This document shows positions 17,071 through 22,313 of a stretch of 33,174 bases of DNA, piece after piece. Source of the stretch: a bacterium. Its GTDB lineage: Bacteria > JAJVIF01 > JAPKYR01. The notes beneath the pieces were generated by a model, which did no database searches, was not told where the DNA came from, and was given only the letters and a program-made list of their open reading frames with translations. The stretch's first letter is position 1, and each line of letters starts with the position of its first letter. The DNA lies in the NCBI GenBank assembly GCA_036397475.1, contig DASWIV010000148.1, positions 1-33,174 on the forward strand, given 5' to 3'. The translations under genes were made by a program, and so were the position numbers.

Positions 17071-17304
17071 ATGAGTATCTATGGAATAAACCCGGGAGCG
17101 CAGGTGGCGGCGCTTAACCAGGCTGTCCAGTCAATAAACAGCGCTAATCTGAAGCTCCTGGAAGCGACAAAACAAATAAACGACGGCGATATCATCGACG
17201 CGGTCCTGCTGATCCAGCAGTCGAAGATCGAGGCGAGTGCCGGTGCAGCTGTCGCGAAAGTGTCTATCAAGGTCTCGGAATCGCTCCTGGATATACTTGC
17301 TTAA
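17071..17304 (+). CDS. small (77 aa) all-helical protein, function unknown
   Basis: RBS GAAGGAAGGTGG upstream of the ATG. A strong terminator follows immediately. Ala/Gln/Ile/Ser-rich with no TM segment and no signal peptide. Confidence 0.55.
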   Translation: MSIYGINPGAQVAALNQAVQSINSANLKLLEATKQINDGDIIDAVLLIQQSKIEASAGAAVAKVSIKVSESLLDILA

Positions 17305-17362: not shown

Positions 17363-17400
17363 GGTCCGCCGTCTCCCACGGCGGACCACTTTTTATTTTT
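17363..17400 (+). terminator. rho-independent terminator
   Basis: Perfect 10-bp stem GGTCCGCCGT / ACGGCGGACC with loop CTCCC, followed by TTTTTATTTTTT. Confidence 0.85.
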
Positions 17401-17419
17401 TATTATATCGTCATATATC

Positions 17420-17448
17420 TTGCCAGATACAATATAATATGGTATACT
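17420..17448 (+). promoter_or_regulatory. sigma70-like promoter
   Basis: TTGCCA (17420-17425), 17-nt spacer, TATACT (17443-17448). The predicted start falls at the 5' end of the closing helix of the downstream leader. Confidence 0.55.
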
Positions 17449-17452
17449 CACA

Positions 17453-17612
17453 CTGTCGGAGAAGGTTTTCCGATGGATAAAGGCACTCCCGTCGCGAGGC
17501 GGGTTCGCAAAGCCAGGAATCTCTCGTAGATAGTCCGGTTGCCCGAAAGTTAACCCTTTCCACAGGTCTTAGAGGGCTCCGGACATAGTGCCGAAGAGCC
17601 CATTTTGTGTTT
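17453..17612 (+). promoter_or_regulatory. structured 5' leader: candidate c-di-GMP-I (GEMM-I-like) riboswitch aptamer plus intrinsic terminator
   Basis: The closing helix pairs 17453-17465 with 17555-17565 (11 bp, two 1-nt bulges). Hairpin CCCGUC-GCGA-GGCGGG (17488-17503) has a GNRA loop and is preceded by AAAGGCAC. The linker is CGCAAAGCC (17506-17514). A second hairpin spans 17513-17538. The terminator GGGCUC...GAGCCC plus a U-tract spans 17574-17612. Confidence 0.45.
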
Positions 17613-17677
17613 ATTTACGAAAATATAAGATTCTGGCATCTAAGACAGGAAGCACTGATTAGCAATGGAGGTGTCCT

Positions 17678-18121
17678 ATGACCAGGAAAAATACTTTTAA
17701 AATATTCAGAAACAGGGACGAGAGAGGGCAGAACCTGCTCGAATTCGCCCTTGTTGCGCCAATTCTAATCTTTCTCTTTATGGGAATGGTCGATTTCGGA
17801 TGGGTTCTGCACCAGCAGATCCAGCTCGATAACGCCACCCGTGAGGGAGCGAGGCGTGGCGCGGTTGGCGAAACATGTGAAGAAATCATCGATACCATGA
17901 TGGCTTCTACAGATATGGGGCTTTCAGTTGACGATATCACCATCGAAGTGAGATTGCCCGGCGGAGGAGTCTGTGACGACAATAGCGACCGGACTCCCGA
18001 GAACAAAATAGCGGTTATGGTCGAGATGATCGACATACCCATGCTTACGCCTGTTGGCAACTTCATATCAGGATTTTCACCTCTCGATCTGACCTCGGAA
18101 TCCGAGTTCCTGATCGAGTAA
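17678..18121 (+). CDS. TadE-like pseudopilin family protein
   Basis: The N-terminus ERGQNLLEFALVAPILIFLFMGMVDFG carries the G/XXXXEF Flp-type prepilin processing motif plus a hydrophobic helix, then the typical NATREGARRG. RBS GGAGGTG. Confidence 0.85.
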   Translation: MTRKNTFKIFRNRDERGQNLLEFALVAPILIFLFMGMVDFGWVLHQQIQLDNATREGARRGAVGETCEEIIDTMMASTDMGLSVDDITIEVRLPGGGVCDDNSDRTPENKIAVMVEMIDIPMLTPVGNFISGFSPLDLTSESEFLIE

Positions 18122-18167
18122 GTGAATTTATTTCGGGTTATATGTATAACCGGTTGGAGGGTAAATT

Positions 18168-19310
18168 ATGACGCTTATGAATCTGTTCAAAAAATTAAGG
18201 GAAAAGGGTAATACCCTTGTCCTTTTTGCGATAGCGATCCCGGTTGCTGTAGGTGCGACAGGACTGGTCCTCGACTGGGGACGTGGTGTCTGGACCCGCA
18301 CTGAACTGCAGCGTGCGGCTGATGCCGGCGCGTTATCGGGATGCTCATTTATGAAAGACAGCCAGACAATGGCTGATTACCAGGCATTTAAAAGCGTTCA
18401 GGCAAATTTTGACGGGCCTGATGGCGCTACTTATACTGCCGATGCGGCCCAGGAAACCTACACGGTTCAGCTTAACGAGACCGTTCCCACATTATTCATG
18501 AGGATCTTCGGACGGGAAAACATGGAAGTCGGCGTTTCCGCGACAGCATTAGGACCTCAGCCGATTGGTGGTCTTCGCGGCGGCGGATTTCCATTCGCCA
18601 TTATAAATCCCGACCTGAATAGCAGCCCATGCGACGACCTGGTTCCAAGTAACTGGGGACGTCCGTACATTATCGGATACGGTGAGAATAACGTCATTGT
18701 CGCCGATTGGGCTAATGACTGTGGAGCCGTACCTCCAAATCCCGGTAACGGGGTTGGTAATGGTAATGGTTGGCGAGGGGCATTAGGCCTCAATCAGGAC
18801 GGAACTTACCACGAAGGTGGTGGTGGTTCAGACCTGAAAGAAAACATGATAAACGGCTGGCCCGGGGAAATGAAGCTGGATGATGTTGTTCCCACTGAGA
18901 CCGGTAATATCTCTGGTCCTATCACACAGGGCAGGGACGCCCTGCTTGGATCTGAGCCACTGCCATGGGGCGAATTCGACATCGATACCGACACTCTGGA
19001 ATCGAGAGTTGTCCTCGTTCCCATTGTCCACCTGATCAACACTTCCAGAAACGATACCTTTACGGTACAGGACTGGAATAATGGAGCGGACTGGGATCAG
19101 TCGGAAGTGGTTGTCGACGGATGGGCTCCATTTTTCATCCTGACGACATCTGAACAGGGCGATGTTGACGGTGATGGCAATGCCAACGATCCTGACTGGA
19201 TTGTCGGGTTGTACATACCCGGAGTCGAGATAAACAACTACCTTCCTCCCGAAGAAAATCAGTCTACGGAGGAATGGGGTGTTTACTCAACCAGCAGGCT
19301 GATCGACTAA
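18168..19310 (+). CDS. TadG-like (Tad N-terminal domain) protein, paralog 1
   Basis: N-terminal GNTLVLFAIAIPVAVGATGLVLDWGRGVWTRTELQRAADAGALSG is typical of the TadE/G-like N-domain. The C-terminal part contains VVLVPIV, DGWAPFFILT and an Asp-rich DVDGDGNANDPDW loop. RBS GGAGGG. Confidence 0.85.
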   Translation: MTLMNLFKKLREKGNTLVLFAIAIPVAVGATGLVLDWGRGVWTRTELQRAADAGALSGCSFMKDSQTMADYQAFKSVQANFDGPDGATYTADAAQETYTVQLNETVPTLFMRIFGRENMEVGVSATALGPQPIGGLRGGGFPFAIINPDLNSSPCDDLVPSNWGRPYIIGYGENNVIVADWANDCGAVPPNPGNGVGNGNGWRGALGLNQDGTYHEGGGGSDLKENMINGWPGEMKLDDVVPTETGNISGPITQGRDALLGSEPLPWGEFDIDTDTLESRVVLVPIVHLINTSRNDTFTVQDWNNGADWDQSEVVVDGWAPFFILTTSEQGDVDGDGNANDPDWIVGLYIPGVEINNYLPPEENQSTEEWGVYSTSRLID

Positions 19311-19399
19311 TTGTGCACTGAAGCGTCGTAATAAATATTGGGACTCCATAGACGATATTGGGACAATTTTGAATTGCATCTCCTCCTGTCTTACTTTGC

Positions 19400-19434
19400 G
19401 GCGCCTCCTCACGGGGGCGCCTGCTTTATTTATT
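19400..19434 (+). terminator. rho-independent terminator
   Basis: 9-bp stem GGCGCCTCC / GGGGGCGCC (one G-U pair) with loop TCAC, followed by TGCTTTATTTATT. Confidence 0.7.
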
Positions 19435-19448
19435 CAAATTATGTGTAC

Positions 19449-19751
19449 ATAGGCTCATCCGTAAGGATGGCGCCAATGCATCCGCTTCACCGTGGTAACA
19501 TGACAATCCGATAAGCCGCAGCATTAGCCCCAGGTTAACACCTGGGCCTAGGTGCCGGGACCCGACTTTCATAGGCCCATCCGTTAAGCCGCAACATTAG
19601 CCCCGGGTTAACACCTGGGCCTAGGTGCCTGGACCCAACTTTCATAGGCCCATCCGTAAGGATGGCGCCAATGCATCCGCTTCACCGTGGTAACATGACA
19701 ATCCGATAAGCCGCAACATTAGCCCCAGGTTAACACCTGGGCCTAGGTGCC
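19449..19751 (+). repeat. 122-bp tandem repeat, copies R1 (19449-19570), R2 (19571-19643, 49-bp internal deletion), R3 (19644-19751)
   Basis: Read directly from the sequence. Each unit begins ATAGGCCCATCCGTAAGGATGG and contains hairpins CCATCC-GTAA-GGATGG and CCCAGGT-TAAC-ACCTGGG. Confidence 0.9.
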
Positions 19752-20264
19752 ATTATAAAATTCCATTGGCTCTCCTTGTTTATGTAACACATAATCAACC
19801 GCATTCTTTACCTCTTCAAATGTCCATTTATACATCGTACTTCCATGTCGTGCCCATCGTTTTCTATGATTATTTTCGAATCCAGCGAGGTTCAAATGCC
19901 GGCTTGAATATGCCTTGAAATCTCTCAGGATATTGGATGGATCAGTAGCCGCCTGAACCACAACATGAACATGGTTTGACCTCACATGAACTGCGAACAA
20001 TCTCCATTTCCTGTACTCACATACTTCAATTATAGCTTTCAGAACGATTTTTCTACGTGATTCATCCATTTTATAGGCAGGCTGGGTCATCAGAGATTCT
20101 TCATGTGATGCTATTCCTGGTTTATTTCCAGCCTGGTATTCGCTGTGAGCGACACCTGTTCGGTAGCGAGAGTATTTTTCGCGACCATGCATTACTTTTC
20201 CGTAGCATGAAAAAGTGATGTGGTATGCCATTGGGTATTTTGAGAAATGTTGATTCTTACTCAT
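19743..20264 (-). CDS. Y1/HUH transposase, IS200-like/REP-associated tyrosine transposase (RAYT)-like
   Basis: YHITF N-terminal strand, HUH motif SNHVHVVVQ and a C-terminal catalytic-Tyr region AVDYVLHKQ. I chose the start at ATG 20264, which has AAGGAG 7 nt upstream. The last codons and the stop lie inside repeat R3. The gene is AT-richer than its neighbours. Confidence 0.8.
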   Translation of the reverse strand: MSKNQHFSKYPMAYHITFSCYGKVMHGREKYSRYRTGVAHSEYQAGNKPGIASHEESLMTQPAYKMDESRRKIVLKAIIEVCEYRKWRLFAVHVRSNHVHVVVQAATDPSNILRDFKAYSSRHLNLAGFENNHRKRWARHGSTMYKWTFEEVKNAVDYVLHKQGEPMEFYNGT

Positions 20265-20359
20265 CAACCTACTCCTTATATTTAGCTTTTTATAAGTAGT
20301 ACGTATCTGAGGCATTAAAACTGACAGGAAAATTCAAGTTATTAAAAAATAATTGAGTC

Positions 20360-20809
20360 TAGGCCCATCCGTAAGGATGGCGCTAATGCATCCGCTTCCC
20401 CGTGGAAACATGACTATCGCAAAAGCCGCAGCATTAGCCCCAGGTTAACACCTGGGCCTACGTGCCTGGACCCGACTTTCATAGGCCCATCCGTAAGGAT
20501 GGCGCTAATGCTTCCGCTTCACCGTGGTAACATGACAATCTGATAAGCCGCAACATTAGCCCCAGGTTTACACCTGGGCCTACGTGCCTGGACCCAACTT
20601 TCATAGGCCCATCCGTAAGGATGGCGCTAATGCATCCGCTTCTCCGTGGAAACATGACAATCTGATAAGCCGCAGCATTAGCCCCAGGTTAACACCTGGG
20701 CCTACGTGCCTGGACCCGACTTTCATAGGCCCATCCGTAAGGATGGTGCCAATACATCCGCTTCACCGTGGTAACATGACAATCTGATAAGCCGCAGCAT
20801 TAGCCCCGG
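20360..20809 (+). repeat. 122-bp tandem repeat, copies R4 (20360-20480), R5 (20481-20602), R6 (20603-20724), R7 (20725-20809, truncated)
   Basis: Same unit and orientation as R1-R3. These copies carry side-specific substitutions: CCTACGTGCC versus CCTAGGTGCC, GCGCTAATGC versus GCGCCAATGC, and AATCTGATAAG versus AATCCGATAAG. Confidence 0.9.
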
Positions 20810-20841
20810 TTGCCAAATATCCATATATACCTTTTTATATC

Positions 20842-20870
20842 TTGCCATTTTTATTATATTATGAAATAAT
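20842..20870 (+). promoter_or_regulatory. sigma70-like promoter candidate for TadG-like paralog 2
   Basis: TTGCCA (20842-20847), 17-nt spacer, AATAAT (20865-20870). The context TATATCTTGCCA is shared with the promoter at 17420. Confidence 0.4.
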
Positions 20871-21106
20871 TTCCGTGTGGATCGGTTGGTTCCGGGTAAA
20901 AGGCGTCCCCTTGACCAGGTAGTCAATTAAACCATTGCTGAACATCATGAGTTGGTTCCACTGTCTGATTTTCTGTTCCGGGCAGTCTAACGAGCGGCAT
21001 TCATTGAAATTTTTATGAGATTCAATAGTTGTTGCATCTAATTTGGTGACTGGATAGCAGGGTTTATCACAGCGTTTCTAAATTGTTCGAGGTATTGAGG
21101 AAAAAA

Positions 21107-22228
21107 ATGAATTTAACGAGTTTCTTTGGAAGAATCCGCGAGAAGGGTAACACTCTCGTTCTTTTCGCGATCACGGTTCCCGTACTGGTCGGCATGACTG
21201 GACTCGTGCTAGACTGGGGAATGGGAGTCTGGACACGTACAGAGTTACAGAGAGCCGCCGACGCCGGTGCGCTGGCCGGATGCCACTGGCTTGACGATGA
21301 GACTATGGCTGATTTCAAAGCCCGCGAGCTCGTCAACAGCAACTTCGATGGCTGCGACTCTATTACCTGCTCGGCAAACCTTGTCGATGAGACATTTACG
21401 GTCGAATTGACAGAGGATGTCCCGACCATGTTCATGAGGATCTTCGGACGCGATACGATGCACGTCCGTGTCGACGCTACCGCCATCGCTCCAATGGAGA
21501 TCGGCGGACTCAGAGCCCACATCTGGCCCTTCGGACTCATCAACCCGGACTTCAACAACGACCCGTGCGACGATCTGACGTCAGCGAATTACGGCACCCC
21601 GATCATCATCGGCTACGGCGAACCTAACACGATGGTTGAGCATTGGTCTAATGGAACCTGTTCACCTGTACCGCCGGCGCCAGCAGGGAATAAGTCTGCC
21701 AATGGCTGGCGCGGTGCGCTGTCTCTCGGAGCTAGCGGCGGAAACACTCTTAAGCAGAACATGATATTTGGATATGAAGGTGATATTCAGATCGGCGATA
21801 CCGTTCTGACTGAAACAGGAAATATGGACGGTCCGTTCTCGCAGGGACGCGAACAGCGCCTTGGTCTTGAGCCTTCACTATGGCAGGATTTTGACCCCGA
21901 ATACGATAAATACGATAGCCGTGTTGTGCTTGTGCCTATCGTTCACCTGATAAATGTGAACCGGCAGGATGAATATACTTCACAGGATTACCTCAATGGC
22001 GCTAAATGGGATAATGGCCGGGCGGTTGTTGACGGATTCGCGCCTTTCTGGATTCTTACCGAAGAGGAACAGGGCGATGTTAATGGCGACGGCAATCCCA
22101 ATAACGATGGCGACTGGATTGTCGGATATTTTATCCCGGGAATCAACGTCAACGATTACCTGCACCCGGACCCGGTTCCTAATCCTGAAGATTGGGGCAT
22201 CCGGTCAACACCGCGACTGATCGATTAA
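21107..22228 (+). CDS. TadG-like (Tad N-terminal domain) protein, paralog 2
   Basis: It is collinear with 18168-19310 over its whole length, including GNTLVLFAI..GLVLDWG.GVWTRTELQRAADAGAL, SRVVLVPIVHLIN, EQGDVNGDGNPNNDGDW and the C-terminal RLID. I chose ATG 21107 (GAGG upstream) rather than the TTG at 21083. Confidence 0.85.
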   Translation: MNLTSFFGRIREKGNTLVLFAITVPVLVGMTGLVLDWGMGVWTRTELQRAADAGALAGCHWLDDETMADFKARELVNSNFDGCDSITCSANLVDETFTVELTEDVPTMFMRIFGRDTMHVRVDATAIAPMEIGGLRAHIWPFGLINPDFNNDPCDDLTSANYGTPIIIGYGEPNTMVEHWSNGTCSPVPPAPAGNKSANGWRGALSLGASGGNTLKQNMIFGYEGDIQIGDTVLTETGNMDGPFSQGREQRLGLEPSLWQDFDPEYDKYDSRVVLVPIVHLINVNRQDEYTSQDYLNGAKWDNGRAVVDGFAPFWILTEEEQGDVNGDGNPNNDGDWIVGYFIPGINVNDYLHPDPVPNPEDWGIRSTPRLID

Positions 22229-22285: not shown

Positions 22286-22313
22286 AACGCCTTCATCACC
22301 GGGGGCGTTTTTA
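22286..22313 (+). terminator. rho-independent terminator candidate between convergent genes
   Basis: Stem AACGCC (22286-22291) / GGCGTT (22304-22309) followed by Ts. It overlaps the stop codon of the convergent hydantoinase B gene. Confidence 0.5.

Follow-up and report, generated by a model that had tools for sequence, protein, structure and literature searches.

Does a locus that encodes one TadE-like pseudopilin and two TadG-like proteins, with no pilus machinery beside it, form a surface system of its own, or is it a detached part of a Tad pilus encoded elsewhere in the same genome? We examined this question for contig DASWIV010000148.1 of assembly GCA_036397475.1 (here C148), the whole of which, 33,174 nucleotides in length, is referred to as the window. 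The contig belongs to a metagenome-assembled genome (MAG; here G000) of 3.3 Mb in 396 contigs, which is 83.7% complete and 0.23% contaminated. An initial annotation had described the module as orphan and had considered that it might be minimal and might act independently of a pilus. We think it probable, with good confidence, that the locus is a dispersed minor-pilin operon with a tip or priming role in the single Tad pilus of G000, co-regulated by cyclic di-GMP (c-di-GMP). We are just as confident that its genes encode TadE and two TadG-like large minor pilins of a type IVc (Flp) pilus rather than the components of a stand-alone system. The coordinates of the three open reading frames agree with the initial annotation:

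17678-18121, plus strand: tadE (PF07811, E = 2.6e-17)
18168-19310, plus strand: TadG-like paralog 1 (tadG1), 380 amino acids (PF13400)
21107-22228, plus strand: TadG-like paralog 2 (tadG2; PF13400), followed by a terminator at 22286-22309

The Tad core and the proteins of the locus

Tad machinery is absent from the window, as had been noted before: C148 gave no match to T2SSE, T2SSF, Flp or Peptidase_A24, and the contig carries none of the machinery for 17 kb upstream and 11 kb downstream of the module. The suspicion that a Tad apparatus might be encoded elsewhere was borne out by a genome-wide search, in which Flp, CpaF/TadA, TadB, TadC, TadZ/CpaE, RcpC/CpaB and the RcpA/CpaC secretin were all identified, distributed over three other contigs of the assembly:

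C130, minus strand: riboswitch, two flp genes, RcpC/CpaB, secretin and a REC-ParA TadZ/CpaE gene that is cut by the contig end
C249: CpaF, TadB and TadC (5' part)
C215: TadC (3' part, at the contig start) and then a DUF192 gene

The assembly contains a single CpaF and a single TadB/TadC pair, and there are no further TadE or Tad (PF13400) genes in G000. The two Flp pilins on C130 are nearly identical proteins of 51 amino acids with the processing site G/QGLTEY, and the secretin is a protein of 841 amino acids with AMIN, T2SS-T3SS_pil_N, BON and Secretin domains. Exactly two c-di-GMP-I riboswitches were identified in the assembly, one located before tadE and the other 173 nt upstream of flp on C130. 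Since the Tad core is located elsewhere, behind the only other riboswitch of this class and a similar promoter, we interpret the locus as part of a dispersed tad locus. The term orphan applies to this contig only, and a minimal module that is independent of a pilus is not supported. The initial annotation had itself allowed for this outcome, in that a tad locus elsewhere with these genes in its regulon would make the module a plain dispersed locus, and such a locus is essentially what was found.

The protein sequences are in agreement with this interpretation. TadE (147 amino acids) matches PF07811 with 63.1 bits (cut-off 22.9) over residues 17-59 and carries the processing motif G/QNLLEF that had been reported for it, here recognized as a Flp-type prepilin-peptidase site, ERG/QNLLEF (ERG/QNLLEFALVAPILIFLF), with a hydrophobic helix after it. 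The motif (R/K)GQ(S/N)(I/L)(V/L)EFA, with Glu at position +5, is kept in 10 relatives. The two TadG-like proteins match PF13400 with 36.4 bits for paralog 1 and 41.4 bits for paralog 2 (cut-off 22.3); the length of the latter is 373 amino acids, as annotated, if translation starts from the ATG at 21107, or 381 amino acids if it starts from the TTG at 21083. A Gly precedes the hydrophobic helix in 40/40 of the TadG-like sequences that have a residue at that position, and position +5 is always hydrophobic and never Glu (the site in the window proteins is G/NTLVLF). Judging from these motifs, we infer that TadE is cleaved by a prepilin peptidase, and the TadG-like proteins are probably cleaved too. 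For CpaL, the absence of the conserved acidic/aromatic residue has been argued to mark the first, tip-most subunit, as in GspK (10.1101/2025.02.12.637803). One hypothesis is that TadE, once processed, joins a TadG-like protein, which like GspK and CpaL has no Glu5, in a complex that would prime the polymerization of Flp. This complex would end up at the pilus tip, where the C-terminal domain of the TadG-like protein, about 245 residues long and rich in beta strands, could be displayed as a module for contact or adhesion.

AF2 gave a confident model of TadG1 (pLDDT 88.4, pTM 0.81), which consists of an N-terminal helix (residues 2-60), a pilin-like sheet that extends to residue ~128 and a beta-rich C-terminal domain (residues 135-380). 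A comparison of the model with the PDB using Foldseek identified no relative (best E = 0.33, TM < 0.15), and the best hit of TadG1 in a sequence profile search of the PDB had an E-value of only 0.89. Pfam and NCBIfam matches were confined to the N-terminal part of the TadG-like proteins, with none to the C-terminal domain, and no vWA domain was identified in the window proteins by Pfam, NCBIfam or PDB fold search. A match of the C-terminal domain to a well-characterized family would have spoken against a novel module, and no such family or fold was found. When this domain alone was searched with phmmer against 1.84 billion representatives, 34 matches were obtained at E <= 1e-3, 10 of which at E <= 1e-10, and the middle of the domain recurs in TadG-like proteins of ~300-350 amino acids. 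The Asp-rich loop described in the initial annotation, EQGDV(D/N)GDGN (EQGDVDGDGNAND), is common to both paralogs; we presume a likeness to DxDxDG calcium-binding loops.

Two further genes in the assembly touch on the Tad system. A third Flp gene (C377:13454-13627) encodes a protein of 57 amino acids that is 60% identical to Flp1 and has the same G/QGLTEY site. It is situated alone between murC/ddl and a manC-like gene, without a riboswitch, and may by analogy represent an adapter or a minor Flp, like KilK/KilO of Myxococcus. The DUF192 gene that follows tadC (C215:499-849) is also found with the tad loci of Neobacillus, Salirhabdus and Dehalococcoidia, and appears from this association to be a conserved Tad accessory gene.

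Riboswitches and promoters of the two operons

The region upstream of tadE contains the following elements:

17420-17448, plus strand: promoter-like site TTGCCA-N17-TATACT with a TG extension, 10/12 consensus matches
17472-17547, plus strand: c-di-GMP-I riboswitch aptamer (RF01051)
17574-17616, plus strand: candidate intrinsic terminator, GGGCUCCGG...CCG(AA)GAGCCC then AUUUUGUGUUUAUUU, an RNAfold hairpin in the leader after the aptamer

The putative riboswitch that had been noticed ahead of paralog 1 scores 50 bits against RF01051 (Rfam hit at 17472-17546), for which the gathering score is 35, and 73.2 bits with the lineage model R1. It is the only Rfam family above its gathering score in the window. 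In the 28 aptamers of the lineage, 96.8% of cells are paired, 14/18 pairs are changed on both sides, a result equalled in 0/500 shuffles, and the CAAAG block is invariant. The position of a c-di-GMP-I riboswitch before tadE fits the earlier suggestion of gating by a second messenger, and the aptamers before tadE and flp can be expected to bind c-di-GMP and to control expression. Among the aptamers at 17473-17547 of the window, C130:5652-5728 and L029 9305-9379, some score slightly higher with RF03167 (c-di-GMP-I-GGC) than with RF01051. An identity as the GGC variant seems unlikely, since all 28 lineage aptamers keep the canonical CAAAG, without the G of the variant.

The promoters of the locus are also related to each other. 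The 12-mer TATATCTTGCCA is found exactly twice in the window (at 17414 and 20836; 0.18 expected) and has no further occurrence in the 3.3-Mb assembly. Each copy is part of a promoter with a TG extension, TTGCCA-N17-(TATACT/AATAAT), in agreement with the claim that paralog 2 has a promoter of its own in the same sequence context. The tadE promoter TTGCCAGATACAATATAATATGGTATACT is furthermore similar to the flp promoter TTGCCGAATACGCTATATTGTGGTATAAA on C130 (TTGCCG-N17-TATAAA), with ATAC...TGGTATA common to the two.

The coupling of riboswitches to both sets of genes recurs outside G000. Among the 25 relatives included in the riboswitch survey, a c-di-GMP-I riboswitch was found before flp-flp(-cpaB) in 8 genomes, and before tadE-tadG-like genes in 8 relatives, in addition to G000. 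The genomes with this pairing span three families in one class.

RNAfold predictions for 13 leaders placed the terminators 3' of the aptamers with no overlap between the two, and in families f2 and f4 the U8 run comes immediately after an extended P1. Because the terminators are non-overlapping and the extended P1 directly precedes the U-run in some relatives, we lean, if only slightly, towards an OFF switch. We hypothesize that c-di-GMP bound at both leaders would set the level of transcriptional read-through at the downstream terminators, that is, by attenuation, so that the machine, the major pilin and the tip would be made together.

Other targets of c-di-GMP-I riboswitches were observed in the relatives. 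In the same family, an open reading frame of 42-44 codons is located ~200 nt downstream of the riboswitch at L131, L124, L132, L133 and L134 (in genomes G006, G003, G001, G005 and G004, in that order). The encoded peptide ends in DTVVGP(F/Y)(S/I)(R/H)(D/E), most commonly ...TFDTVVGPFSRD, and no such gene was seen in the incomplete G000 assembly. In families f2 and f4, the riboswitch precedes lipoprotein-like genes of ~450 amino acids (L119, L129 and L138; G013, G012 and G010).

The two TadG-like paralogs

The region between the two TadG-like genes and the leader of the second gene are organized as follows:

19400-19431, plus strand: terminator 3' of tadG1 (9-bp stem, 8 of its pairs GC; T-rich tail)
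19449-20811: REP-like repeat arrays that enclose a Y1 transposase gene of RAYT type (19743-20315, minus strand)
20842-20870, plus strand: promoter-like site TTGCCA-N17-AATAAT with a TG extension, 10/12 consensus matches
20871-21106, plus strand: tadG2 leader, interpreted as a riboswitch-leader relic, with ~87-nt homology to leader 1

The paralogs had been described as collinear, identical at more than half of their positions and derived from an old duplication, and all of this stands, with one refinement. They are collinear over their full length, with 221/382 identical residues (58%, E = 1e-154). Their nucleotide identity is 59% and the same codon is used at only 91/221 of the identical residues, and synonymous sites are therefore near saturation. 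The two window paralogs come out as sisters (support 98/90) in a tree built from 42 family members, with P0002, P0031 and P0004 as the nearest relatives of the pair, while in other genomes the first and second tandem tadG copies belong to two clades of greater age. Hence the duplication is old by sequence but lineage-specific, and an ancient shared duplication is ruled out for G000 by the tree.

The transposase/repeat island that had been noted between the paralogs consists of arrays with TRF periods of 73 and 122 bp (93% matches), in which a gene for a Y1/IS200-like (RAYT-type) transposase is located (PF01797, 34.1 bits; weak match to NF047646 REP_Tyr_transpos). The tandem tadG genes of the relatives are separated by ~40-100 bp, as compared to the REP/RAYT island in G000. 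RAYT-type Y1 genes adjoin both of the riboswitch-controlled Tad units of G000 (19743-20315 and C130:6058-6564), and two further copies were found on C31; this may be a coincidence, or the element may favor these intergenic regions.

A comparison of the two leaders with lenient scoring revealed a homologous block of ~87 nt that spans the promoter and the first aptamer hairpin (z = 8.5), whereas a strict local alignment was not significant (score 26 vs 19 +/- 2.6). The rest of leader 2, including a possible tadE remnant, is at best weakly collinear with leader 1 (z = 2.7). A second riboswitch before tadG2 was considered and rejected, since neither Rfam (E <= 10) nor the lineage model, run with its filters off, recovered an aptamer. 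Given the homologous block and the absence of an aptamer, we interpret leader 2 as a relic rather than a working switch. The simplest history would be that a promoter-riboswitch-(tadE)-tadG unit was duplicated, after which the second copy lost tadE and the aptamer. At L039 (7520-8000), a riboswitch is followed by what remains of a degraded tadE (RRGQSLVEFAL..., beyond which the frame is broken) and an intact tadG-like gene, which is a comparable natural intermediate for the loss of tadE from the cassette. In our proposal, tadG2 would thus stem from a lineage-specific duplication that copied promoter and leader, and the aptamer would later have been lost. Because of this loss and the REP/RAYT island that separates it from tadG1, tadG2 is probably expressed independently of c-di-GMP.

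An alternative explanation is that tadG2 is a decaying and redundant copy, isolated from its operon when the REP/RAYT island inserted and now preceded by a dead leader. The branch leading to tadG2 is 2.3 times longer than that of tadG1 (0.77 vs 0.33), its leader has no aptamer, and comparable decay is seen in relatives, as in the tadE remnant at L039. However, tadG2 has an intact frame of 373 codons, a ribosome-binding site (GAGGA) 7 nt upstream of the ATG, a promoter with 10/12 consensus matches and a terminator of its own, and every invariant column of the family is kept. Moreover, identity of 58% after the saturation of synonymous sites suggests long purifying selection, and we consider it improbable that the gene is in decay.

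Relatives, known systems and significance

The close TadG-like family comprises ~45 clusters in 5.8 billion proteins, all of which are from metagenomes or from MAGs that carry the label "Planctomycetota bacterium" or simply "bacterium". Where contigs are long, the unit consists of a small open reading frame, the riboswitch, tadE and then one to three tandem tadG genes, set among housekeeping genes such as GDPD and recR-ybaB-dnaX, and no tad machinery was found within 10 kb of it. The riboswitch-tadE-tadG arrangement was identified on the metagenome contigs L029, L033, L034, L037 and L041. Whether such a pair would recur away from tad machinery in related genomes had been raised as a question, and the answer is that it does. 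More distant, full-length homologues of the TadG-like protein (24-31% identity, coverage to residue ~290-355) are situated inside canonical contiguous tad loci in Ureibacillus, Salirhabdus euzebyi and Neobacillus, as well as on a Dehalococcoidia chromosome and in a delta-proteobacterial MAG. These loci have the gene order flp-tadE-tadG-cpaE-cpaF-tadB-tadC, with or without cpaB and DUF192. The genes are placed outside a tad locus in G000 and its close relatives and inside one in five distant lineages; in G000 the connection to the machinery is a regulatory one, through the sister riboswitch.

Pattern scans of the window suggest three transcription units, which lie between genes for GNAT, MFS and DoxX proteins and genes for hydantoinase B/A:

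Unit 1, plus strand: gene for a 77-amino-acid helical protein (17071-17304) with its own terminator (17363-17387)
Unit 2: promoter, riboswitch, tadE, tadG1 and terminator (19400-19421)
Unit 3: promoter (20842-20870), 236-nt leader, tadG2 and terminator (22286-22309)

The 77-amino-acid protein matched no Pfam or NCBIfam family. Homologues of its gene (38-55% identity, C-terminus ...LLDILA) are located directly upstream of riboswitch-tadE at L029, L033, L034, L037 and in G001, and the gene travels with the riboswitch-tadE unit although the outer flanks differ between genomes.

Several observations weigh against the interpretation of the locus as a minor-pilin operon of this Tad pilus. The genome-wide search recovered CpaF, TadB, TadC, the secretin and Flp but no prepilin peptidase: no Peptidase_A24 (TadV/CpaA-type) was found in G000, which is 83.7% complete. 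Exactly one such gene is present in 5/8 of the relatives in the same family, PilD-sized and encoding 320-376 amino acids, for which reason its absence from G000 is probably an assembly gap and a single shared prepilin peptidase is likely. The Flp pilins score 29.3 bits in Pfam, just under the cut-off of 32.2. C130, C249 and C215 are tied to C148 by binning, in support of which we note the contamination of only 0.23% and the presence of both units in related genomes. In the anti-terminator test, the complementarity between the aptamer and the terminator arm was no better than in many shuffled sequences (97/500 and 140/500 reached the observed value). Finally, solitary TadG-like genes without tadE or riboswitch were observed at L031, L035, L036, L038, L040 and L042 and in genus g3, which means that the coupling of riboswitch, tadE and tadG is not universal.

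We give very little credence to the idea that the proteins constitute an autonomous surface or secreted system, in which they would be membrane-anchored or released rather than built into a Tad pilus. The solitary TadG-like genes, which also lack flp, could be taken in its favor, as could the distance of the locus from any tad machinery on the contig and a C-terminal domain without a fold relative among known structures. Yet the Tad core is present in the same genome behind a sister riboswitch, both proteins keep the cleavage-site Gly of class III/Flp type and the hydrophobic alpha-1 helix, the distant homologues belong to canonical tad loci, and no other export signal is evident. It would also be very surprising if the proteins served another type IV filament (type IVa pilus, type II secretion system (T2SS)-like or Com-like), as might be suggested by the 12 matches to T2SSE-type ATPases in the assembly and its three additional platform genes of PilC/GspF type, considering that PF07811, PF13400 and G/xxxxE[FY] are specific to Flp/Tad systems (Flp here having G/QGLTEY) and that the riboswitch and promoter are common only with the flp operon.

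The interpretation that we favor, a detached minor-pilin operon serving the Tad pilus of G000, has a parallel in the Kil (Tad-like) pilus of Myxococcus xanthus, in which four dispersed KilLMN tip clusters of the TadE/F/G type represent paralogous and partly redundant sets that serve one pilus (PMC12075869). In both systems, the minor-pilin genes are located in clusters away from the Tad core, several paralogs are associated with one pilus, and the large TadG-like member has a C-terminal domain without a relative in the PDB. Unlike in the Myxococcus clusters, the set here comprises TadE and one or two TadG-like proteins but no TadF was seen, a c-di-GMP-I riboswitch stands at the head of this operon and also of the flp-core operon, and the C-terminal domain has a different, beta-rich fold; nothing points to predation. 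For Caulobacter, the prediction is that CpaL/TadG acts as the first subunit at the tip, along with two small minor pilins (10.1101/2025.02.12.637803). Like TadG of Aggregatibacter actinomycetemcomitans and CpaL of Caulobacter crescentus, the window proteins are large and combine an N-terminal pilin module with the absence of the conserved +5/+6 residues. In contrast, CpaL has a vWA/MIDAS domain and is encoded in or near the cpa locus, whereas the window proteins have no vWA domain, contain an acidic DxDxDG-like loop and are encoded on a separate contig.

Priming by minor pilins is a common principle: in T2SS and type IVa systems, small minor pilins together with one large member without Glu5 prime the assembly and cap the filament. 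GspK-GspI-GspJ and PilVWX-FimU are reportedly complexes of this kind. The logic would be the same here, but the protein families are different, and the window proteins show no sequence or fold match to these complexes. Likewise, c-di-GMP riboswitches before pilus genes have been an established theme since the original GEMM reports. The aptamers described here share their architecture, covariation and CAAAG block with other RF01051 riboswitches, of which Vc2 of Vibrio cholerae is the type example. They differ from the typical case in that two copies wire two operons of one Tad machine and in that the expression platform is a downstream, non-overlapping terminator. Among the papers available to our literature search, none was found that ties c-di-GMP riboswitches specifically to tadE/tadG.

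The earlier suggestion that the paralogs are alternative tip or adhesin variants is plausible by analogy with KilLMN of Myxococcus. In its most far-reaching form, which we regard as improbable, TadG1 would be made only in the c-di-GMP state in which pili can also be formed and TadG2 constitutively, with the messenger choosing the cap; the head would be a calcium-binding fold that has not been seen before, and the 77-amino-acid protein would be a dedicated partner of the tip cassette, for instance a chaperone or adapter. If true, the second messenger would determine which of the two heads is placed on the Tad pilus, beyond deciding whether pili are made at all.

Our findings leave the present view of Tad pili intact. 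Their most notable elements are the wiring by two riboswitches, a tadG2 gene without an aptamer, a head fold without a relative and the conserved 77-amino-acid companion. The findings add a lineage, the uncultured MAGs labelled Planctomycetota, in which c-di-GMP riboswitches precede both the pilin/machine operon and the tip operon, and they provide a confidently modelled TadG head domain without a solved relative. More generally, "orphan" TadE/TadG cassettes in fragmented MAGs should be regarded as pieces separated from a Tad pilus, and a common riboswitch class can be used to re-link the scattered operons of one machine.

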